Source of the DNA: an uncultured Bacilli bacterium
Lineage (GTDB): Bacteria; Bacillota_I; Bacilli_A; RF39; UBA660
Reading direction: 5' to 3'
DNA: 39,313 bases
Assembly: GCA_910580135.1 (NCBI GenBank)
Contig: CAJTXC010000002.1
Coordinates: 1-39,313 of the forward strand
The stretch's first letter is position 1. Each line of letters opens with the position of its first letter. Positions 2,816-27,841 of the stretch are shown piece by piece. The notes below the pieces were generated by a model that saw only the letters and a program-made list of their open reading frames with translations, was not told the DNA's origin and made no database searches. A program made the translations under genes and the position numbers.

Positions 2816-3997
2816 TTATTTAATGTTTTTATCGTATTCGATGTCCTGTATTTCATATTTTCTGTTTTCGGAAATGGTCTTCATAAGTTTATTAACGGAT
2901 AATCCTACGATTGCTAGGATAAAGAAATATATAACACCAAATAACGAGAACGATGGTGCCGACTCGGTAAACAAGTCAATTAATGATGCACCAACACCCA
3001 TTGCGGTAACAATCGTTAAGCTTCCGATTGATTTTTCTGTTACTTGCGATTCTAATCCTGCGAATAATTTTTCGGCTTGCGATAAATAATTCTTAGTCAT
3101 TGACCATATTTGTTGCATATATGAAACCGTGTTTTTTAAAGTTTCATATCTATATCCAATTAAATCTAATGATTCTGTTAAAGAATTATCGTTTTTAGCA
3201 ATCTTTTCCCTGGTACTTATATAAGTATTCATTTGGTTGATTCTTGAATCAATTAAAGTAACCGTTTTTTTGTATCCGTCAAGTTTATTAGTAAACGCAA
3301 CGATTTCTTTACCCTTAACCTTGGCATTTTCCTTAACGGCGTCAATCTTTTCCCAGATAATTCTGTGCAAGTTAAGATATCTATGCAATTGTCCTTTAAA
3401 TTCTCTTATAAATATTTGCTCTTCAATATATCTTTCAATTTGTTCTATAGATTTTGTTTTATTATTAATGAAATAATATTTATTACCCCTTACAACATCA
3501 TAGTCATTGTTACTAAATTCAAAATACTTTTCTTTTTCTGTTTTAGCTAAAAGCGTTGCAATATCATTTTTAGTAGCCTTATTTAAAACTATAAAGTAAG
3601 GAAACACAGTTTCAATGTTTGCAAGTTCTTTAGGTACTGGAGCTCCTAAACTAAATATATAACCTATTGCGGGAGATAGCTTAGTTTCATAATAGCTAGC
3701 TAAGGAATCTATGTCATTAAATAACGAAAATTCATTTATATCAGAATCATTTAAAACAATAAGACCATCTTCAAATATTTTTATGTTAACCCCTGCTCTT
3801 GTTGTTACTTTAATAAATTCTAATCCATCAATTCCATAATCAATTGTACTTAAATCTAAAGCATCATGTAATTTTACTAGCTTTTTCTTATCTAAAGCAA
3901 GTTCTGATTTACCCTCTCTTAAAAAATCATATATTTCACTTAATTGTAGTGTAGTTCTTTGAAACCAACCACCTATATAAACCTTTTCTATTCTCAT
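2816..3997 (-). CDS. Hypothetical membrane-anchored protein (soluble N-terminal domain plus two C-terminal TM helices)
   Basis: 393 aa, with its stop 3 nt from the ABC gene start (operon). Two C-terminal hydrophobic segments: LTIVTAMGVGASLIDLF and FGVIYFFILAIVGLSVNKLM. SD GTGAGG lies upstream. No family recognised. Confidence 0.6.
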   Translation of the reverse strand: MRIEKVYIGGWFQRTTLQLSEIYDFLREGKSELALDKKKLVKLHDALDLSTIDYGIDGLEFIKVTTRAGVNIKIFEDGLIVLNDSDINEFSLFNDIDSLASYYETKLSPAIGYIFSLGAPVPKELANIETVFPYFIVLNKATKNDIATLLAKTEKEKYFEFSNNDYDVVRGNKYYFINNKTKSIEQIERYIEEQIFIREFKGQLHRYLNLHRIIWEKIDAVKENAKVKGKEIVAFTNKLDGYKKTVTLIDSRINQMNTYISTREKIAKNDNSLTESLDLIGYRYETLKNTVSYMQQIWSMTKNYLSQAEKLFAGLESQVTEKSIGSLTIVTAMGVGASLIDLFTESAPSFSLFGVIYFFILAIVGLSVNKLMKTISENRKYEIQDIEYDKNIK

Positions 3998-4020: not shown

Positions 4021-4461
4021 TTATTTAACACTCATTGAGAAGAATCCTGCATCATCCAACTCAAAACCATAGTTATAGTAACATGCATGTGCGGCAGTTC
4101 TTACGTTATTACTCCATAATTCCACTTTTTTACAACCATGTTTTTTAGATATATCAAAAGCAACATCAAGCATCTTAGTTGCAATACCATGACGACGATA
4201 ATCTTCCTTAACACCAACGTGGTTTAAAATAGAATATGTATTCATGTTTTCATAAATTGTATTAATAATAGTTATTTTAAGATGTGAAACTATTTTCCCA
4301 TCAACAACACCTACTATATAAATTGAATTAGGATCCTTTCTATGTTTTTTATAAGTTTTCATTGCATACTCTAAAGATGTTTCTTCTTTAAACACTTCAT
4401 TACAAAGTGCTACTACTTCAGGAACATCTTTCTTTTTCATTTCTCTAAAAGTTACTTCCAT
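4021..4461 (-). CDS. GNAT family N-acetyltransferase
   Basis: 146 aa with acetyl-CoA binding motif RRHGIATKML and a typical GNAT layout. SD AAGGAGA lies upstream. Confidence 0.8.
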   Translation of the reverse strand: MEVTFREMKKKDVPEVVALCNEVFKEETSLEYAMKTYKKHRKDPNSIYIVGVVDGKIVSHLKITIINTIYENMNTYSILNHVGVKEDYRRHGIATKMLDVAFDISKKHGCKKVELWSNNVRTAAHACYYNYGFELDDAGFFSMSVK

Positions 4462-4507
4462 TATTTTTTCTCCTTACCTGTTTAAAAAGTATAAAACTTA
4501 TTGTTTT

Positions 4508-4569
4508 TACATGTTGATAATATCATTAAGCCCCCCCCCGGTCAAGATTTTAACTTTTCCACAGTAAAA
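4508..4569. repeat. Copy 1 of ~62-bp promoter cassette (about 55/62 identical to 5803-5863)
   Basis: TACATGTTGATAATATCATTAAG-C9-GGTCAAGATTTTAACTTTTCCACAGTAAAA aligns with the copy at 5803-5863. Confidence 0.9.
4517..4545 (-). promoter_or_regulatory. Sigma-70-type promoter with a G9 homopolymer in the spacer (17-nt spacer)
   Basis: Minus strand reads TTGACC-GGGGGGGGGCTTAATGA-TATTAT. It lies about 50 nt upstream of the GNAT start. Confidence 0.65.
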
Positions 4570-4570
4570 G

Positions 4571-4610
4571 AAAATGTAAAGTAAAAACAATAATTTTCAC
4601 TTTACATTTT
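4571..4610 (-). terminator. Terminator-like hairpin after the 385-aa gene
   Basis: AAAATGTAAAGT-N16-ACTTTACATTTT forms a perfect 12-bp stem overlapping the stop at 4602. A T-rich stretch follows on the minus strand. Confidence 0.5.
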
Positions 4611-5759
4611 CATGTTGTATTCATCTTCAATAAATTTATATGTTTCTTTAAATTCTTCTGCTGCAACACCATATACTTTATCCATGTTAGTTACATTTAA
4701 ATATCCGCCAGCTTTTATATTCATATCTCCTCCCCATGGTGATGGGAAAGTAATGTTTTCGTTTATTTGTATAAACTGTTGAGCATCGCCTTTAGGCTTA
4801 TATAATCCTTTTTCTTCTGGATCTATATCATACTTTTTTGAAAAAGTACTATCACTTATTATCCATTCATTTTTATGACCATACTCATCTATAGCAACCT
4901 CTCCATCTATAACTTTTGCAACAACCCAACCTGGTTTATTAGTTTCTGGATCTAATTTTACTTCATTAACTGTTTCAACTAAACCTGTTTTAGTATAAGT
5001 AGTTATTTTTTCTCCTACAATTCCAGGTCTTGCTACTATTCTTGAAAATTTTTGAGCAGCTTTTGGTTTAACACCTTGTTCCGAAATAATATTTTGTGCA
5101 TATTCTTTAGCATTAACCCTAATGAATTCTTCTTCTGATTTTTTATCATACGAAAGATATAATTTATTTATTGCTTTCATTTGTCCAATAGAATCTTTAA
5201 TTTTATTTGCATCTTCTAATGAGAATGGAAATCTTTTAAGCATCTCCTCCATAAAGTCAGGCCCTTTTTTAGAAAATCTAAACACGGCATCTGCTATAAC
5301 CCTAGTATCCATACCCTGAACATTTTTCAAAAATTCAAATGCTTTTTCAATTGAATCATTTTCTACGATTTTAAGAACCTGGATAATTGTTGGTACTTCT
5401 CTTGCATATGCATATCTACCATTACTATCACTTAAAAACTTTGTCCATTCTTCCTCTTTTCCAGGAACAATTAAGCTCAAACCTTCTTTTATCCATGTTT
5501 CTATATTATCATGTGCAAAAAGAACTTCTTCTCTTTTTTCTGCACCAATAGAGCTACCAATATTAGCCATTTTTTGATCAAATTCTTGTTTCGTCATACC
5601 ATAGACTTCTTTATATGCATTTTCAATTGTAAAATTATTAGAATTCAATAAATGTCCATTAAAATTACATGCAATATCTTTTCCTATTCTCTGAGCATCT
5701 GATAATATACTAATAACATCTCTAAAATCTGTTCCAGCAGGAATTTCTATTTCTCTCAT
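4602..5759 (-). CDS. Hypothetical protein (385 aa from the SD-supported start)
   Basis: Long ORF. The second ATG (MREIEIPAG) has SD GGAGGT 7 nt upstream, whereas the ORF-track start at 5774 has none. No family recognised. Confidence 0.7.
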   Translation of the reverse strand: MREIEIPAGTDFRDVISILSDAQRIGKDIACNFNGHLLNSNNFTIENAYKEVYGMTKQEFDQKMANIGSSIGAEKREEVLFAHDNIETWIKEGLSLIVPGKEEEWTKFLSDSNGRYAYAREVPTIIQVLKIVENDSIEKAFEFLKNVQGMDTRVIADAVFRFSKKGPDFMEEMLKRFPFSLEDANKIKDSIGQMKAINKLYLSYDKKSEEEFIRVNAKEYAQNIISEQGVKPKAAQKFSRIVARPGIVGEKITTYTKTGLVETVNEVKLDPETNKPGWVVAKVIDGEVAIDEYGHKNEWIISDSTFSKKYDIDPEEKGLYKPKGDAQQFIQINENITFPSPWGGDMNIKAGGYLNVTNMDKVYGVAAEEFKETYKFIEDEYNMKM

Positions 5760-5802
5760 ATCTATTACCTCCATATATTCTAGTTATAAAAAACAACAAT
5801 TT

Positions 5803-5863
5803 TACATGTTGATAATAGCATTAACCCCCCCCCGGTCAATATATTGACTTTTCCACAGTAAAA
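5803..5863. repeat. Copy 2 of ~62-bp promoter cassette
   Basis: TACATGTTGATAATAGCATTAA-C9-GGTCAATATATTGACTTTTCCACAGTAAAA. Confidence 0.9.
5812..5839 (-). promoter_or_regulatory. Sigma-70-type promoter with a G9 homopolymer in the spacer (16-nt spacer)
   Basis: Minus strand reads TTGACC-GGGGGGGGGTTAATGC-TATTAT. It lies about 50 nt upstream of the 4602-5759 CDS. Confidence 0.65.
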
Positions 5864-5959
5864 TAGATTGTAAACAAAATTTTTCATAAAAAATTAATAA
5901 ATTCCTTTTTTTTACAATAATTTTTGAATTAGGTGGTATTATATAGTTAAGGAGGAAAT

Positions 5960-7336
5960 ATGGAAAATACAGTAATGAATAAAAAAACGAATGGTTGGTT
6001 AAACACTGACGAAAAAAAGAAGAATTTAATATTTGATTTTTGTGATGAGTACATCAAGTTTTTAAATAATGGTAAAACAGAAAGAGAAGCATCTAAAATA
6101 ATTGTTGATGAATTAGAAAATAATGGTTTTAAAAATATTAATACTGTGGATAAGTTAGATGATGGTGATAAAGTATATATGCTTAACAGAGATAAAAGTG
6201 TATATGCTGCTATTATTGGTTCTGATAGTATGGTAAATGGAATTAATCTAGTTGGAGCACACATAGATTCTCCAAGATTAGATTTAAAACCTAATCCACT
6301 TTATGAAGATGCAAAACTTGCTCTTTTAAAAACTCACTATTATGGTGGAATTAAAAAATATCAATGGACTACTATTCCACTTGCTATTCATGGAGTTGTA
6401 GTTAAACCAAATGGAGATAAAATAAATATTGTAATTGGTGAAGATGATAATGATCCTATATTTACAATAACTGATATATTACCTCACTTAGCTCAGGAAC
6501 AATATGAAAATAAAATAGGAAAAGCTATAAAGGGTGAAGATTTAAATATTTTAATTGGTAGTATTCCAACAGAAGAAAAATCTGTTAAAGAAAATATAAT
6601 GAACATTATATACGAAAAATATAACATAGGTGAAATAGATTTCTATAGTTCGGAACTTGAAGTAGTACCTGCATTTAAAGCAAGAACTTTAGGTTTTGAT
6701 AGAAGTATGATTGCAGCTTATGGTCAAGACGATAGAGTATGTGCTTACGCTTGTTTAAAAGCTTTATTAGATGCTAACAAAAATAGCAAAACAATGGTTG
6801 CTATCTTCTCTGATAAAGAAGAGATAGGAAGCGTTGGAAACACTGGGATGCGTTCTGAAGTATTTGACTTATTTGTAAATGAAATTTTAACTAAAAAAGG
6901 AGAAAACACACCAGGAGCAATAAATAAAACATATTGTAATTCCATGATGCTTTCCGCAGACGTTGGTGCAGGTGTTGATCCAAATTATCAAAGTGCTTCT
7001 GAACAAAACAATGCATCATTTATTGGTTACGGTGTTGAGCTTAATAAATACACCGGTTCTGGAGGTAAATCAGGAGCTTCTGATGCAAACGCAGAGTTCG
7101 TTGGAAAGGTTAGAGGTATCTTTGAAAAGAACAATATAAAATACCAAGTTGCAGAACTTGGAAAAGTAGACTTAGGTGGCGGCGGAACCATTGCATACAT
7201 CTTAGCGGATAAAGGTATGGATGTTATCGATTGCGGTGTTCCTGTTATTTCAATGCACTCACCATATGAAGTTACAAGTAAATACGATGTATACTCAGCA
7301 TATGAAGCTTATAAAGCTTTCTTTGAAGAAGAATAG
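5960..7336 (+). CDS. M18 family aminopeptidase (aminopeptidase 1-like)
   Basis: 458 aa with GAHIDSPRLDLKPNPL, HYYGGIKKYQW and C-terminal SMHSPYEV motifs. SD AAGGAGG lies upstream. Confidence 0.8.
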   Translation: MENTVMNKKTNGWLNTDEKKKNLIFDFCDEYIKFLNNGKTEREASKIIVDELENNGFKNINTVDKLDDGDKVYMLNRDKSVYAAIIGSDSMVNGINLVGAHIDSPRLDLKPNPLYEDAKLALLKTHYYGGIKKYQWTTIPLAIHGVVVKPNGDKINIVIGEDDNDPIFTITDILPHLAQEQYENKIGKAIKGEDLNILIGSIPTEEKSVKENIMNIIYEKYNIGEIDFYSSELEVVPAFKARTLGFDRSMIAAYGQDDRVCAYACLKALLDANKNSKTMVAIFSDKEEIGSVGNTGMRSEVFDLFVNEILTKKGENTPGAINKTYCNSMMLSADVGAGVDPNYQSASEQNNASFIGYGVELNKYTGSGGKSGASDANAEFVGKVRGIFEKNNIKYQVAELGKVDLGGGGTIAYILADKGMDVIDCGVPVISMHSPYEVTSKYDVYSAYEAYKAFFEEE

Positions 7337-7388: not shown

Positions 7389-8333
7389 ATGAAAGTAAGA
7401 TTAGGTTATGTAGCACTTTCTAAAGCTATGAATGATATAACAACATCAAGTACGATAACATACACTAATTACATAAATAAAAATTATACTGTGGATAAGT
7501 TGTTAGATGTTACAAAAAGTAATTTAGATGCTTTAAAAGAACTACTAATTTATAACGTTAAAAATAATATTCATTTTTACAGGCTAACCTCTAAATTAGT
7601 TCCTCTTGCTACTCACGACAAGGTATCATTTGATTATATAAAACCATTAGATAATAAATATAAAGAAATTGGTAATATCATAAATGATAGCAACATGCGA
7701 GTAGATACTCATCCTGATCAATATGCAGTATTAAATAGCATGGATAAAAAAATTATTAAAAATACATTTAAAATATTAGAATATCATTATAAGGTGTTAA
7801 AAGCATTAAAAATTAATAACCCAATAATAATATTACACGTTGGTAGTAGTGCATGTGGTAAAAAAGCATCAATTACTAGATTTATAAATAATTTTAATAA
7901 ACTTCCAGAACATATACAAAAATGTATTACCGTGGAAAACGATGATAAAATATATAACATAAAAGATGTACTTAACTTATGCACTAAATTAAATATACCA
8001 ATGGTTTTAGATTATCATCATTATATATGCAATAACGATGAAGAAAAAATAGAAGACTACATAAAAGAAATAATGAATACTTGGAAAAATATTAATCCAA
8101 AGTTTCATTTTTCATCACCTAAAAGTAACTTAAAAAAAGAATTTAGAAGTCATCATGATTACATAAATTCTGATGATTTTATAAAATTCATAAACATACT
8201 AAAACCATATAATAAAGATGTAGACATAATGTTAGAAGCAAAAGCTAAGGATGATGCTATCTCAAGACTAGTTAGAGAGCTTAAATATAAGACAAATTAT
8301 AATTTTTTAGATGAAACTACTTTCATTATTTAA
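7389..8333 (+). CDS. uvsE: UV damage endonuclease UvdE/UvsE
   Basis: RLGYVA..., FYRLTSKLVPLATH, VENDDKIYN, DYHHY, FHFSSPKS and IMLEAKAKD motifs are colinear with Bacillus UvsE. ATG at 7389 is preferred over GTG at 7380 (GGTGA lies 5 nt upstream). Confidence 0.85.
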   Translation: MKVRLGYVALSKAMNDITTSSTITYTNYINKNYTVDKLLDVTKSNLDALKELLIYNVKNNIHFYRLTSKLVPLATHDKVSFDYIKPLDNKYKEIGNIINDSNMRVDTHPDQYAVLNSMDKKIIKNTFKILEYHYKVLKALKINNPIIILHVGSSACGKKASITRFINNFNKLPEHIQKCITVENDDKIYNIKDVLNLCTKLNIPMVLDYHHYICNNDEEKIEDYIKEIMNTWKNINPKFHFSSPKSNLKKEFRSHHDYINSDDFIKFINILKPYNKDVDIMLEAKAKDDAISRLVRELKYKTNYNFLDETTFII

Positions 8334-22469: not shown

Positions 22470-24857
22470 ATGAAATTAATGGTTGATAAAGTTGAGTTTA
22501 AAAGCAAACCAAGTGGAAATGAAATAGCTCAAATTCAAAATAGATTTAAAGATGAAAATACACTAAAAGAAATAAGCGTAACAGAACTATTTGACTATAT
22601 AAAAAAAGGATATACTTTTGTTCCCGGTGTTACTAAAGGCGGTGCAAAGAATGAAAATTGGGAGCAACAACAAGTTATCTTTATTGATGTAGATAATGAT
22701 GATAGAAACAATATACTTACACCTAAACAAGCTATATCTAAATTTAAAGAAAAGAATATTGAAGTCCTAGGTTATTACCATACATTTAGTAGTACTAATG
22801 AAATACCACGTTATAGACTTATTTTATTATTAGATAAACCTATAACTGAAAAATCTAAAATGGAATTCATACTGAAGACATTAATAGATTATATAGGTGG
22901 AGATAATGCTTGTAAAAATCTTGCTAGAATTTTTTATGGTACTAATGGAGATGAAAAAGAAGTTATTCTTCTTAACTCTGGAGCTACTATTACATTTGAT
23001 GAAATTATTTCACTAAATAATCAAATTCAAAAAGCTAAAGATTATGGAAATGATTTAAATAAATTAGTAAAAAAGTTTGATTTATTAGAGTACATGAAGA
23101 AAGATAATAATGTTACCTATATTTCAAATGATAGAGTGAATTTTGAAACTTGTTCTATTTGTGGACATAAAGACTGTTTACGTTATTATCCTAAAACGAA
23201 TTCATTTTATTGTTTTGGAAAAAATGGTAATACTGGTGGAACTATTATTGAGTATCTTATGGCAACAAAGAATATGGATAAAAAAGAAGCTATAGAGTAT
23301 TTTAAACATGATATTTTAAGGCTTTCTGATAATCAAGAGAGTAAACCTGATAACTTCGATATACTATTAAAAACTGTAAAAAATCAAATTAAAAGTCTAG
23401 GCTTTCCCGATAATATAGTTAATGAAGAAAACTTTATTTGGATAAGTGAAAATATGAAAATACTTTGTCCTTATCTAGCTGATTTCTTTAGAAAAAATGT
23501 TAATTATATTTTTGTAAAAGATAGAGCTACTCACGAGACACTTAAATACTTTTATTTTAATAATTACTATGAGCGTAAAGCTGATGAAGAAATAAGAGGG
23601 ATTATAAAACAATTTATACCTATGCCTTTACAAAAATCTTCACAATTTAACGAAGTTTTTAATCTACTATTGACTGACTTAAATTTTGTGAATGTAGATG
23701 AACTAAACAAAGAAAATATTATAAACTTTCAAAATGGTATTTTTCATATAGATACGTGGAAGTTAGAAAAGCATTCTCCAAAGTATTTATCTACAATAAG
23801 GATTCCATGTGAATATCATGAAGATGTTCCTACCCCTGAAACTAAGTATTTTGATAACTTTATCAATACACTAACCAACGGAGATAATGAAATTAAAAAA
23901 TTACTGTTTCAAGTAATGGGTGTAGCAATTTCTAATGTTGCAGGTTATAGAATGAAAAAAGCTATTTTAATGTATGGTAAAGGAAATACTGGTAAATCTG
24001 TATTAAAAAACTTTTTAACTTCAATTATTGGAAAAGAAAACTGCACTAATATTGATTTAAAAGAGCTAGAAGATAAATTTGGTAAAATCAATTTATTACA
24101 TAAAAGAATGGCTGGATCTAATGACATGAGTTTCGTTAAAATAAAAGAACTAGAAACTTTTAAACAAGCAGTAGGTGGAGACCTAATACATGGTGCTGAT
24201 AAATTCGAAAAAGCAATTGATTTTAAATTTAAAGGTGTATTCTGGTTTTGTGCAAATGAACTACCAAAATTTGGAGGAGATCAAGGAGACTGGGTTTATG
24301 ACCGATTTATTGTAGTTGAATGCAAAAATGTTATTCCTAATGACAAGCAGGATAAAGAGCTTGTTGAACACCTTTTAGAAGAAAAAGAATACATTGTATC
24401 TCTTGCTTTAAAAGGCTTAAAAGAAGTTATAGACAACAAATATCGTTATGACATACCTCAAAGCTGTATATTGTTAAATGAACAATATAAAATTGATAAC
24501 AATAGCTTTAGAACCTTTTTACAAGAATGTTGTATTGATAGAGTACCTGGAGCAAAAATCGAAGATACGAATTGTACTAAAGGAAAAATACACAAAGTGT
24601 ATAAACAATGGTACAAAGATAATTATCGTGGTGGTTTTTATGAAACAACTAGCGAAATTAAAAAGATTTTAGAAAATATGGATAAATACCATATTATCAA
24701 AACCAATAACGGTAATGAATATTATAAGGACTTTACTTTAAAAGAAGAAATACAACGAGAATACAAAGACCTTTTAGGAATTCTAGATATTCCACCTGTT
24801 GAAACAATAAAACCAGAAGATGTTGGATTAGAAGATATGGATGAATTAACATTCTAA
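22470..24857 (+). CDS. Primase-helicase (prim-pol N-terminal domain, zinc finger, P4/D5-type SF3 helicase)
   Basis: 795 aa. VIFIDVDND acidic motif, CSICGHKDCLRYYPKTNSFYCFG zinc finger, Walker A GKGNTGKS, and downstream WFCANELP. Confidence 0.85.
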   Translation: MKLMVDKVEFKSKPSGNEIAQIQNRFKDENTLKEISVTELFDYIKKGYTFVPGVTKGGAKNENWEQQQVIFIDVDNDDRNNILTPKQAISKFKEKNIEVLGYYHTFSSTNEIPRYRLILLLDKPITEKSKMEFILKTLIDYIGGDNACKNLARIFYGTNGDEKEVILLNSGATITFDEIISLNNQIQKAKDYGNDLNKLVKKFDLLEYMKKDNNVTYISNDRVNFETCSICGHKDCLRYYPKTNSFYCFGKNGNTGGTIIEYLMATKNMDKKEAIEYFKHDILRLSDNQESKPDNFDILLKTVKNQIKSLGFPDNIVNEENFIWISENMKILCPYLADFFRKNVNYIFVKDRATHETLKYFYFNNYYERKADEEIRGIIKQFIPMPLQKSSQFNEVFNLLLTDLNFVNVDELNKENIINFQNGIFHIDTWKLEKHSPKYLSTIRIPCEYHEDVPTPETKYFDNFINTLTNGDNEIKKLLFQVMGVAISNVAGYRMKKAILMYGKGNTGKSVLKNFLTSIIGKENCTNIDLKELEDKFGKINLLHKRMAGSNDMSFVKIKELETFKQAVGGDLIHGADKFEKAIDFKFKGVFWFCANELPKFGGDQGDWVYDRFIVVECKNVIPNDKQDKELVEHLLEEKEYIVSLALKGLKEVIDNKYRYDIPQSCILLNEQYKIDNNSFRTFLQECCIDRVPGAKIEDTNCTKGKIHKVYKQWYKDNYRGGFYETTSEIKKILENMDKYHIIKTNNGNEYYKDFTLKEEIQREYKDLLGILDIPPVETIKPEDVGLEDMDELTF

Positions 24858-24883
24858 TCCAATTTAATCTTAAGGGATATTTA

Positions 24884-25200
24884 TTTCACTAGAAGTGAAA
24901 ATTAAAGTGAAAAATATTCTAATCAAATACTAAGTAGATATTGATAAAATTAACAGTTAAGTGAAAAAGTGAAATTAAATTTATATTTATAATATTTATT
25001 ATTTATATTTTTTAATCAAAAAATAAAATCATTTACAAAATAAATAAATATAAATAATAGAGTTTTTTCACTTTCTCACTAATACCTACTTTTCCTACTT
25101 TATTTACAATAAACAAAACAAAAATAATATTCACTTATATCATCCCTACTTTAATATTTTTATCACTTCATCTACAAAAAAAATCCCTAGTGAAAAAAGC
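24884..25200. other. Putative replication origin: inverted iteron sets flanking a 91-nt AT-rich core
   Basis: AAGTGAAA-type repeats lie at 24894, 24906 and 24960-24974, and inverted at 24884, 25066-25080, 25131 and 25163. CCTACTTT occurs 3 times (25085, 25094, 25145). The core 24975-25065 is almost pure A/T. The region lies immediately 3' of the primase-helicase gene. Confidence 0.65.
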
Positions 25201-25360
25201 ATACGATAATACCAACTTAATTAAGTATAGTATTTTGGGTTCAAAACGCATAAACACGAACTTTAGAACCAGTTCCGAAATGTTTAGGGGTTTTTAACTG
25301 ATTACGGAGGGCTTATTTCTATTAACACCTATATAATTTATTTATAAGGAGGAAATAGAA

Positions 25361-25969
25361 ATGGATAATAGTAGAATTTATGGGTATGTAAGGGTGTCAT
25401 CGAGGCAGCAGCACACAGACCGCCAAGTACAAGCATTAATTGAAAATGGAGTTGATGAAAGATTTATATTCATAGATAAACAAAGTGGGAAAGACTTCAA
25501 CCGTGAACAATACCAAATTTTAAAAAATGCTTTAAGAAATGGAGATACACTATATGTAAAGTCGCTGGATCGATTTGGTAGGAACTATTCCCAAATCATA
25601 GAAGAATATTCTTCTATTGTAGATTTAGGGGTTAATCTTGTTATTTTAGATATGCCTCTTCTTGATACCAGACAAAATGATGATTTAATGCGCAAATTTG
25701 TAAATAATTTAGTTTTACAGATTTTAAGTTTTGTCGCAGAAAATGAACGTAAATACATAAAAAGTAGACAGGCTGAGGGAATTTCTATAGCAAAAGCAAA
25801 AGGAGTTAAATTTGGAAGACCAAGAATAGACTATCCAGAAAATTGGAATAGTGTCATTAAGCGTTGGGAAAACAAAGAAATTACTGGAGTTCAAGCTCAA
25901 AGAGAACTAGGACTTAAACATAATACATTTTATAACCTATACAGAAAACAACAAGAAATGAAAAAGTAG
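25361..25969 (+). CDS. Small serine recombinase (resolvase/invertase family)
   Basis: 202 aa. IYGYVRVSSRQQHTDRQ catalytic motif, SLDRFGRN, and a C-terminal HTH. SD AAGGAGG. Confidence 0.9.
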   Translation: MDNSRIYGYVRVSSRQQHTDRQVQALIENGVDERFIFIDKQSGKDFNREQYQILKNALRNGDTLYVKSLDRFGRNYSQIIEEYSSIVDLGVNLVILDMPLLDTRQNDDLMRKFVNNLVLQILSFVAENERKYIKSRQAEGISIAKAKGVKFGRPRIDYPENWNSVIKRWENKEITGVQAQRELGLKHNTFYNLYRKQQEMKK

Positions 25970-26010
25970 TAATCAGTACATCTAAACTAAAAAAGAAAAG
26001 AGTGATATAA

Positions 26011-27516
26011 ATGAAAGGAAATGCTAAATTATATTTACGATATAGCTCTTCTAGTCAAGACCCTCAAACTATAGAGGTACAAAGAAAGAAATGTCTTGAA
26101 TATGCTAAAAGATTAAATTTAAATGTTATTGGTGAGTATGTTGATGAAGCACAAACCGGAAGAAACGATAATAGAAAAGCATTTAAACAAATGCTAGAAG
26201 ACAGTAAAAGTGGAGATTTTCAATATATCATAGTTTTTAAATTGGATAGGTTTGCACGTTCAATGCAAGTAAGTATTAATAGTCAAGCAGAATTAGAGAA
26301 AAACGGTGTCGAGGTATTATCTACTTGTGAAGAACTACCTCATAATGCTAGTGGTAAATTCATGAAAGGTATCTATCAATTAGTAGCTGAATTCTACTCT
26401 AATGACTATGCAGAACGCATTAGTAATGGACTTGCAAACAACGCCTCTAAATCTCTAACAACAGGTAATAATGTTCCTTTAGGATTTAAAATAAATAAAG
26501 AAACAAAAGAATTTGAAATTGATGAGGTATACGCTCCAATAGTAAAAGAAATATTTGAACGTTACGCTAAAGGAGATACAGTTGTAGACATTACAAGTGA
26601 TTTGAATGAAAGAGGATATGTAACTAAAAAAGGAAATAAATTTAATAAAAATAGCTTACATCGTATGCTTGTTAATGAGAAATATATAGGTATTTATATA
26701 TACAAAGGTCAAATTATGCCTAAACGTATACCTAGAATAATAAGTGATGAGTTATTTAATGAAGTACAAGAGGTAATGGAAAAGAACAAAAAAGCACCAG
26801 CTAGACAAAAAGCGTTTACAGAATATTTATTAACACAAAAACTGTTTTGTGGATATTGTAAAGAAATGATGACAGGTTACTCAGCTAAGAAGAAATACAA
26901 CTATTATGGATGTAAGGGAAAAAAACAACATAAGTGTAACAAATTACCGGTTCATAAGGATTTTATAGAAGATTTAGTGTTTGATGAAACTAAGAACTTC
27001 TTAAATAATCAAAAAAATATAGATATGATAATTAAAGAAATTGAAAATATCGCTAAAAGAGAACGTGATGATAGAGGTTTAAAAGAGTTTAAAAAACAAC
27101 TTAAAACAGAACAAAGAAAAAAAGAAAATCTATTAAACGCACTAGCTAATTGTAGTGATGAAGACATAAGACAGGATATATACGAAAAAATGGGTTCAAT
27201 AAAAGCTAGTATTGAACGTATAACATTTGAAATTTCTAAAATTGAAACTCCAATAGATACTATGCTACTAGATAAAATAAACTTTGTTATAGAGGAGATG
27301 AAAAATGGAAATATCAAGGATATAAAGTTCAAGAAACTACTAATTAATATGTTTATAAGTGAAATTTACTTATATGATGATATGGTTACTATTGTATTTT
27401 TAACAACAAAAAAGAAGAACATTAAGTTCTCCGATGATTTATTAAAACAAACTAAAAGTTTGTTTAATACTACTATGGTGGAGCTGACGAGAGTCGAACT
27501 CGTGTCCGAAAAATAG
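26011..27516 (+). CDS. Large serine recombinase (integrase of the element)
   Basis: 501 aa. AKLYLRYSSSSQ catalytic region, KLDRFARS, a recombinase domain, the zinc ribbon CGYCKEMM...YYGCKGKKQHKC and a coiled coil. The last 41 nt overlap ssrA. Confidence 0.9.
   Translation: MKGNAKLYLRYSSSSQDPQTIEVQRKKCLEYAKRLNLNVIGEYVDEAQTGRNDNRKAFKQMLEDSKSGDFQYIIVFKLDRFARSMQVSINSQAELEKNGVEVLSTCEELPHNASGKFMKGIYQLVAEFYSNDYAERISNGLANNASKSLTTGNNVPLGFKINKETKEFEIDEVYAPIVKEIFERYAKGDTVVDITSDLNERGYVTKKGNKFNKNSLHRMLVNEKYIGIYIYKGQIMPKRIPRIISDELFNEVQEVMEKNKKAPARQKAFTEYLLTQKLFCGYCKEMMTGYSAKKKYNYYGCKGKKQHKCNKLPVHKDFIEDLVFDETKNFLNNQKNIDMIIKEIENIAKRERDDRGLKEFKKQLKTEQRKKENLLNALANCSDEDIRQDIYEKMGSIKASIERITFEISKIETPIDTMLLDKINFVIEEMKNGNIKDIKFKKLLINMFISEIYLYDDMVTIVFLTTKKKNIKFSDDLLKQTKSLFNTTMVELTRVELVSEK
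27473..27487. repeat. attR core (CTATGGTGGAGCTGA), the 3' ACCA/acceptor end of tmRNA
   Basis: 14/15 identical to 14386-14400. Confidence 0.75.
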
Positions 27517-27841
27517 TCCACTATAGCCTCTACAAGTTTAGTTAGTAATTAAGGTTTAATTAAATGATAAAGGTAACTAACATACCCACCATATAACGAG
27601 TTTAGTAAAATTCATTACTCTTTCCTAAACAAAAAGAATAGTATAACTCACTAAAATTGAGCCTCTTTAAAAGCACGTGAGTAAAACTTAAAAAGAAGCG
27701 CTTTCTCTATTAGAGACTAGGCAGCACAAGCTGCGAAAGCATAATTATTTGTTTTGTTATTTATTTTTTGTTTGCACGTAAGGAGTGCCTTCCACTTGCA
27801 ACTATAGATTCATCTTTTTCGTCGAAACCAATAACAGCCCC
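27476..27841 (-). ncRNA. ssrA: tmRNA (transfer-messenger RNA)
   Basis: The minus strand starts GGGGCTGTTATTGGTTTCGACG and ends GGACACGAGTTCGACTCTCGTCAGCTCCACCA (T-arm, acceptor with G3-U, CCA), 366 nt in all. The only Ala-rich frame ends ...KTNNYAFAACAA-TAG. smpB lies 2 kb away. Confidence 0.9.

Follow-up and report, generated by a model that had tools for sequence, protein, structure and literature searches.

The 39,313-nucleotide (nt) stretch of DNA analyzed here, hereafter the window, comes from an uncultured Bacilli bacterium (contig CAJTXC010000002.1) and carries, on its minus strand, two similar putative promoter cassettes whose -35 and -10 hexamers are separated by a spacer holding a run of nine guanines (G9). 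Both read TTGACC-G9-(7 or 8 nt)-TGnTATTAT, and each lies ~50 nt upstream of a start codon. Copy 1 (4503–4581) fronts an operon that opens with the gene for a GNAT acetyltransferase and continues with genes for a 393-amino acid (aa) membrane protein and an ABC exporter; copy 2 (5798–5875) fronts the gene for a 385-aa accessory protein. In copy 1, the -35 hexamer TTGACC (4545–4540) is followed by the G9 tract (4539–4531; C9 on the plus strand), the remainder of the spacer, CTTAATGA (4530–4523), and the -10 hexamer TATTAT (4522–4517). The spacer is thus 17 nt long, and a TG at -15/-14 makes the -10 element an extended one (TGaTATTAT, 4517–4525), with transcription predicted to start near 4510–4512. 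The corresponding parts of copy 2, also on the minus strand, are TTGACC (5839–5834), G9 (5833–5825), the spacer remainder TTAATGC (5824–5818), and TATTAT (5817–5812), i.e., a 16-nt spacer with an extended -10 element TGcTATTAT (5812–5820).

A first-pass annotation of this DNA had described two promoter copies of ~62 bp, identical at ~55 of 62 positions. Over the same span we count 57 of 64 identical positions, and the true homology is longer, ~75 nt, reaching from TTTAC, ~30 nt 5′ of the -35 hexamer, to CAACATGTAAAA around the predicted start; copy 1, delimited in this way, has as homologues both copy 2 and the single cassettes found on related contigs. The hexamer-tract-hexamer pattern and the two spacer lengths given there (17 nt before the GNAT gene and 16 nt before the 385-aa gene) agree with the coordinates above. 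So does the statement that these are the only long G/C homopolymers of the window: runs of at least 6 nt are confined to the two C9 runs of the plus strand, the next longest is a single C5, and at a G+C content of 27.3% only 0.0012 runs of at least 9 nt would be expected. An Rfam scan of the whole window matched a tmRNA and nothing else, so that the cassette corresponds to no known RNA element. Each cassette is probably a promoter of the housekeeping-sigma (sigma-A/sigma-70) type, built from a -35 box, an extended -10 element, and a G homopolymer in the spacer between them.

The genes behind the cassettes, all on the minus strand, form two units. The operon comprises the GNAT gene (4021–4461; PF00583, 1e-14), the gene for the 393-aa membrane protein with a possible CorA-like fold (2816–3997), and, last, a gene for a fused membrane-domain/ATPase ABC exporter (1176–2813). 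The three genes are separated by 23 nt and 2 nt, neither gap has a predicted terminator, and a terminator hairpin with a T-run lies 3′ of the ABC stop codon (~1160–1182). A three-gene operon without an internal terminator had been proposed from the 23-nt gap, and the proposal gains support from synteny kept across four lineages. The 385-aa gene (4602–5759) has a ribosome-binding site, GGAGG, 8 nt upstream, and an alternative ATG at 5774 would extend the product to 390 aa. Between this gene and copy 1 lies a 19-pair hairpin followed by TTTT (4611–4570), likely the terminator of the 385-aa gene, and the two units are therefore insulated from each other. No regulator gene is linked to the locus.

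The length of the G tract varies extensively among strains. We compiled 61 promoter instances from independent metagenome assemblies held in ENA, NCBI-MAG (MAG, metagenome-assembled genome), JGI, and Logan, and produced by differing assemblers; lineages beyond the window's species were recovered with orthologues of the 393-aa protein (91%, 87%, and 81% identity), and spacers were computed from TTGACN to TATTAT. Across these instances the tract runs from G7 to G13 and the spacer from 14 to 20 nt. Had G9 been invariant across strains, phase variation would have been refuted by a criterion set beforehand; what we see is the opposite. The 10 listed contigs that encode the window's exact GNAT protein have a single cassette, with G9 in four, G10 in four, and G11 in two. 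In contigs with the 385-aa gene, the copy before the GNAT gene has G9 (followed in the window by an extra C) or G10 (contig L011), and at the copy before the 385-aa gene the window has G9, L013 has G11, and the tract of L034 is interrupted (G9TGGG). More distant lineages repeat the pattern: TTGACC-Gn-TATTTGA-TATTAT with n = 8, 9, or 10 in the 91% lineage, TTGACC-Gn-ATATGA-TATTAT with n = 9, 10, 12, or 13 in the 87% lineage, and TTGAC-Gn-CAGCGTGA-TATTAT with n = 7, 8, 9, or 10 in the 81% lineage.

The tract changes while its surroundings do not. In many contig pairs drawn from different samples, 1.6–3 kb of flanking sequence match perfectly while the tracts differ by up to 2 G, for instance, L066 (G8) and L067 (G10), or L004 (G10) and L007 (G11); alleles of the 87% lineage with G9 and with G12 or G13 are otherwise identical over the 200 nt 5′ of the GNAT gene. 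The 33 A/T runs of 7–8 nt in these contig sets all keep a constant length, whereas five of five G tracts vary; the A/T runs are somewhat shorter and hence an imperfect match. Since L011 departs from the window at the GNAT copy (G10) and L013 at the 385-aa copy (G11), the two copies vary independently. This bears on the earlier claim of two independently switchable units: the independence of the two tracts stands, and the switching itself is something we infer. The companion claim, that spacers of 16 and 17 nt place the two units in different expression states, finds no support; both lengths are near the optimum, and at most a graded difference would be expected. The best explanation as a whole, to which we assign a probability of roughly 70%, is that the spacers of two promoter units are tuned by tract slippage and that the repeated cassettes also mediate deletion of the gene between them.

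Several alleles depart from the common pattern. The tract is interrupted in 2 of the 61 instances, L034 (769–800; G9TGGG, spacer of 20 nt, from a sister lineage) and L086 (~2412; GGGGAGGG, at the sortase locus described below), and both look like ‘locked’ variants to judge from their sequence. In L059 and L060, from the 91% lineage, unrelated sequence (…AAAATGACTTGACAGCC) takes the place of the cassette's 5′ half and with it of the -35 region, the junction falling at the CC dinucleotide just 5′ of the G tract and the nominal spacers being 19–20 nt; the G tract may here act as a recombination breakpoint. The 5′ leader of L056–L065, from the same lineage, is ~140 nt long, i.e., ~90 nt longer than the ~50 nt of the window, and contains two hairpins, GGTGAA…TTCACC and TTGCAAG…CTTGCA, both absent from the window. 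The extra leader could be an attenuator or an inserted element.

G-tract promoters of this design occur elsewhere in the clade. A scan of a metagenome collection for the core pattern gave two matches, both at unlinked loci, and a scan of viral contigs for the promoter gave none; three distinct loci with a G-tract promoter were found. The second locus lies directly downstream of gyrA (L032 and L085–L099), where the promoter precedes genes for a surface protein and a sortase and reads TTGACC-G9/G10-TTAATGATATTAT in one species and TTGAC-G8/9/10-TAACTTGATATTAT in another. The surface protein, of 377 or 378 aa, carries a signal peptide and, at the C-terminus, a sorting signal composed of NPSTS, a hydrophobic helix, and KKVKQR; a 47%-identical homologue occurs in a ‘Candidatus Aphodocola sp.’ MAG (Bacilli incertae sedis). 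Two of its alleles, P0327 and P0344, share an identical signal peptide, identical last ~80 residues, and near-identical promoters, and are only 52% identical overall because the middle of the protein is highly diverged. The alleles are mosaic, the classic profile of a contingency surface antigen. The third locus (L033; G8) precedes genes for small membrane proteins and an ABC ATPase.

Three other G-tract promoters have, 60–95 nt 5′ of the -35 hexamer, a 36-nt element resembling the end of an insertion sequence (IS), ACATACCCTCT..GTGTCTACTTTAAGTTTACC. It is found at 284–319 of L032, in L033, and at 1314–1349 of L068, and also in L069–L075 and L097–L099. In L068 it forms the end of an IS3-like element with an rve transposase, and elsewhere it stands alone; ISs may prefer these promoter regions as targets, or the 36-nt copies may be IS remnants. 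A promoter carried by an IS was considered and seems unlikely, as in L068–L075 the IS sits 5′ of the cassette and does not surround it. Only tentatively do we raise the idea that the ~75-bp block (TTTAC … TTGAC-Gn-TGnTATTAT-AACATG) is a reusable ‘contingency promoter’ module shared across the clade and placed before unrelated genes. If this were true, one module would front units as different as a transport operon, a membrane/ABC locus, an accessory gene, and the gene for a mosaic surface protein anchored by sortase, making up a set of independently slipping transcriptional switches, a phasotype system as in Neisseria or Campylobacter, in a Gram-positive commensal; modules in tandem would also recombine with each other, so that the gene lying between them could be gained or lost.

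The evidence for such removal comes from the window's own locus. One cassette and the 385-aa gene together form a 1,294-bp repeat unit (4531–5824; repeat spacing 1294/1295) that is missing from single-cassette strains, which are the majority. The gene is absent from 10 of the 10 listed contigs with the exact GNAT protein and from the contigs of the 91%, 87%, and 81% lineages. The single cassettes closest to those of the window are chimeras of the two copies. L002 joins the upstream flank of copy 2 to the core of copy 1, which places its crossover within TTTTACTGTGGAAAAGT, and L009 and L006 join the core of copy 2 to sequence downstream of copy 1, which places theirs within TATTATCAACATGTAAAA; the exact crossover point therefore varies between alleles. 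Because these single-cassette alleles are chimeric, the direct repeat probably also mediates gene loss. In addition, a sister lineage (GNAT gene 93% identical in DNA, 385-aa protein 92% identical) has the same order of M18 aminopeptidase gene, cassette, 385-aa gene, cassette, and GNAT gene, and keeps the features specific to each orthologous cassette copy. The simplest reading of these sequences is that an old two-cassette arrangement has repeatedly collapsed by recombination between direct repeats.

The reverse history is improbable, though it is the strongest of the alternatives: the two-cassette state would be derived, the 385-aa gene having come in as a mobile unit, together with a promoter copy of its own, and having integrated at the promoter already in place. 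The gene is rare, the exact 385-aa protein being carried by only 5 contigs as against more than 21 without the gene, and related promoter modules exist elsewhere, some with the adjoining IS-like sequence described above. Yet two different chimeric alleles are exactly what unequal crossover between resident copies predicts, and the layout and the copy-specific differences are common to a lineage only ~93% identical in DNA. Moreover, neither the gene nor the cassettes of the window are flanked by terminal inverted repeats, a target duplication, or a recombinase, and no transposase adjoins the cassettes.

A second alternative accepts the hypermutability of the tract and denies it any effect on expression, the TGn extended -10 element driving transcription alone and the -35 hexamer being dispensable; changes in length would then be tolerated noise in a G run that is retained for another reason or has yet to decay. 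Extended -10 promoters depend less on a -35 box, and the TGn motif is present in every copy; the modal spacers of 15–16 nt and the extremes of 19–20 nt also occur in apparently healthy populations. The pattern of conservation makes us doubt this alternative rather more than the previous one. TTGAC is invariant in 61 of 61 instances, and across the deep divergence that they cover this argues that the -35 hexamer is used; together with TGnTATTAT, it is invariant in four lineages of the GNAT locus, down to ~70% DNA identity of the GNAT gene. The part of the spacer outside the G tract, by contrast, changes from lineage to lineage (TTAATGC, CTTAATGA, ATATGA, TATTTGA, and CAGCGTGA). Invariant boxes around a free spacer are the footprint that RNA polymerase contacts would be expected to leave if the length of the spacer were all that mattered. 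An unselected G9 should also decay in DNA of 27% G+C, yet the tract is kept over the same ~70% range, is present in every lineage in which the locus adjoins the M18 gene, recurs at unlinked loci, and is only rarely interrupted (2 of 61). In 306 kb of related loci, these tracts are the only G/C runs of at least 7 nt. Orthologous GNAT/393-aa operons in other contexts (lineages of 79%, 76%, and 69% identity) have ordinary promoters devoid of a G run, from which it follows that the tract is a specific, maintained feature and no requirement of the operon.

Conservation beyond the hexamers suggests a further alternative. An upstream motif, TACTGTGGAAAAGT (4553–4566, minus strand; ~-43 to -59), has five matches against 0.41 expected, is partly kept between lineages, as ACTGTTGACAAGT and ACTGTTGAAAAGT, and may represent an activator site or a sequence akin to an UP element. 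On this alternative, a regulator-binding or structural site would reside in the G run or in the CCGGGGGGGGG block, and its action would be tuned by tract length in ways that go beyond hexamer spacing. A poly-C tract works through regulator interaction in the Bordetella fim promoters, with BvgA. A precedent of the rheostat type is the T-tract of Helicobacter pylori sabA (PMC4081817). Extra factors are hinted at by the conservation of TTTAC ~30 nt 5′ of the -35 hexamer, of TACTGTGGAAAAGT, and of AACATG at the start. We nonetheless regard this alternative as distinctly unlikely, given that the tract lies exactly between a conserved -35 and a conserved -10 hexamer, where an effect on spacing is simplest, that the upstream motif is not kept at the sortase locus of other lineages, and that the locus has no linked regulator gene.

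Two other readings of the region around copy 1 were rejected. A DnaA-box/oriC reading of TACTGTGGAAAAGT (TTWTNCACA) fails because the box is altered to TTGTCAACA or TTTTCAACA in the P0238 and P0228 lineages and the motif is missing at the sortase locus of other lineages. An identical 16-mer, ATACTGTGGATAAGTT, a close match to the cassette motif, occurs at 6140–6155 and 7485–7500 on the plus strand, within the unrelated coding regions for the M18 aminopeptidase and UvdE; a perfect DnaA-box 9-mer, TTATCCACA, can be read in its reverse complement. A scan of a genome collection for the upstream motif together with the -35 hexamer gave 17 matches, all due to chance, in unrelated high-GC MAGs. Copy 1 is also bracketed by a 17-nt inverted repeat (4494–4510 and 4581–4597; 16 of 17 positions complementary), the left arm of which overlaps the terminator hairpin of the 385-aa gene. 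An invertible promoter was ruled out: 61 of 61 promoter instances face the gene, no inverted copy (C-run) was seen at any locus, and no recombinase is adjacent to the locus.

Finally, it is very hard to believe that the tract differences are sequencing or assembly artefacts superimposed on a fixed tract. It is true that Illumina instruments are prone to errors in long G runs, that the tract is where several Logan contigs end, and that most differences amount to one G. Yet the lengths span 7–13, with differences of 2–4 G between otherwise identical contigs; the ENA, NCBI-MAG, JGI, and Logan assemblies, though made by differing assemblers, all show this spread; and the A/T homopolymer controls never vary.

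Slippage-tuned spacers would work as follows. Replication slippage would add or remove Gs far faster than the flanks gain substitutions, and because the tract slips, the distance between the -35 and -10 hexamers would move over ~14–20 nt across the population. In such promoters the optimum is 17/18 nt between the hexamers, and fetA, porA, and opc show three expression levels (PMC4235727). By this spacing rule, a change in the tract would raise or lower transcription in a heritable but reversible manner, acting separately on the GNAT/CorA-like/ABC-exporter operon and on the 385-aa accessory gene. Graded output (high, intermediate, and low) is more likely than a strict on/off switch because both promoters have an extended -10 element; in the window, the 17-nt and the 16-nt spacer probably each allow transcription, that of the GNAT operon being nearer the optimum. 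Recombination between the direct-repeat cassettes would, in addition, delete the 385-aa gene and one cassette, and most strains would therefore be left with a single, chimeric cassette. The same promoter design recurs at other loci of the clade, including that of the sortase-anchored surface protein. The start site, length-dependent expression, switching within a clone, and the selective agent are inferred throughout.

Several points weigh against slippage-tuned spacers as set out here. The placement of the start site and the role given to the -35 hexamer follow from consensus and conservation alone, and the extended -10 element could lessen the weight of the -35 hexamer and hence of spacer length. 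The commonest spacers are 15–16 nt, not 17, so either the usual state is sub-optimal or our hexamer boundaries are off by one. The lengths come from consensus assemblies, most of them probably built from short reads, and differences of one G could include homopolymer miscalls. Four contigs (L011, L012, L014, and L035) break inside the tract, and these ends are ambiguous, as a mixture of strains with and without the gene gives the same breaks; they were not counted as a sign that tract lengths are mixed within a sample. That the indel arose by loss and not by gain is deduced from the chimeras and from one sister lineage.

The 385-aa protein had been taken for the product of an orphan gene, which it is not: a word-indexed search gave one close relative, and an exhaustive HMMER search found 783 distant ones. 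That search divides the protein into an N-terminal helical domain (residues 1–200) and a C-terminal beta-rich domain (205–385). The C-terminal domain (~205–385) belongs to a large family, with 359 cluster representatives at E ≤ 1e-10, in which it mostly stands alone as a protein of ~175 aa, with one copy within a 7,277-aa protein; the N-terminal domain is repeated up to five times in an 892-aa protein. The structural model is confident (pLDDT 89). Nothing matched the protein in Pfam, NCBIfam, PHROGs, PADLOC, or the sequences of the PDB, and its model gave no significant PDB fold match. The 393-aa protein likewise matched no Pfam family. In its model, an alpha/beta domain at the N-terminus is accompanied by very long helices and, at the C-terminus, by two hydrophobic helices; the PDB entries that match it best are CorA/Mrs2 channels (E = 5e-4, probability up to 1.0, and low TM-scores), a relation that the model offers as a lead only.

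Away from this locus, the window has a tmRNA gene at 27476–27841 on the minus strand (Rfam, 155.8 bits), where ARAGORN reported none; the reading frame of its tag appears to end in …NNYAFAACAA. A large serine recombinase open reading frame (26011–27516, plus strand) overlaps the 3′ end of the tmRNA gene, and a P4-type primase is encoded close by (22470–24857). The region 22470–27841 looks like a genomic island integrated at ssrA.

Compared with known systems, the proposed mechanism would be closest to that of Neisseria porA and opc, and the architecture resembles that of the Mycoplasma vlp genes. In Neisseria meningitidis, porA (poly-G), and opc and fetA (poly-C), likewise have a G/C homopolymer between the -35 and -10 hexamers (PMC4235727). 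As here, the tract differs in length between close isolates, and slippage there takes place around the 17/18-nt optimum. However, Neisseria is a Gram-negative pathogen in which the targets are outer-membrane proteins of measured expression, whereas the present case is that of an uncultured low-GC Bacillota gut commensal known from sequence alone. Unlike the Neisseria promoters, the present one has an extended -10 element, and its targets are a GNAT/CorA-like/ABC operon and a cytoplasmic-looking accessory protein. In Mycoplasma hyorhinis, each vlp gene has its own copy of a conserved promoter block with poly-A in the spacer, and the genes switch independently. Tandem neighboring copies and a gene number that varies between strains are common to vlp and to the cassettes described here, but the vlp tract is poly-A and the genes behind it encode paralogous lipoproteins, whereas the genes here are unrelated.

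Other repeats are less similar. The subfamily II tpr genes of Treponema pallidum have a poly-G of ~7–12 just 5′ of the start site that varies between and within strains and modulates promoter activity; they differ in belonging to a spirochaete, in the position of the tract relative to the hexamers, and in having surface antigens as targets. In gut commensals, phase variation is known mainly from the invertible promoters of Bacteroidales, and from repeats within coding regions, the latter in a few pathogens and bifidobacteria. The T-tract ‘rheostat’ of H. pylori sabA (PMC4081817) tunes expression stepwise, as we would expect here from the extended -10 element, but it lies beside the -35 hexamer and works through DNA geometry and contacts with the alpha-subunit of RNA polymerase. 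The sortase-dependent pilus of Bifidobacterium breve, comparable to the gyrA-adjacent locus, provides a case of poly-G slippage in a Gram-positive gut commensal, although there the tract is inside the coding sequence and causes a frameshift, whereas here it is in the promoter spacer (PMC9187656). Every feature of promoter-spacer simple-sequence-repeat phase variation of the porA/opc/vlp type that sequence can test is matched. The homopolymer mechanism is known; what would be new is the host group, the reuse of a module across the clade, and gene loss mediated by the repeat.

These results would provide a comparatively supported case of promoter-spacer homopolymer switching in uncultured low-GC Bacillota, drawn from animal and human gut metagenomes and involving at least three loci. 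Such switches would be recognizable, and could be ‘phasotyped’, directly in public metagenome assemblies. The GNAT/CorA-like/ABC operon, the 385-aa protein family, and the mosaic sortase-anchored protein are flagged as probably being under fluctuating selection, and the paired cassettes would offer an example of a promoter repeat that may both tune and delete an accessory gene.

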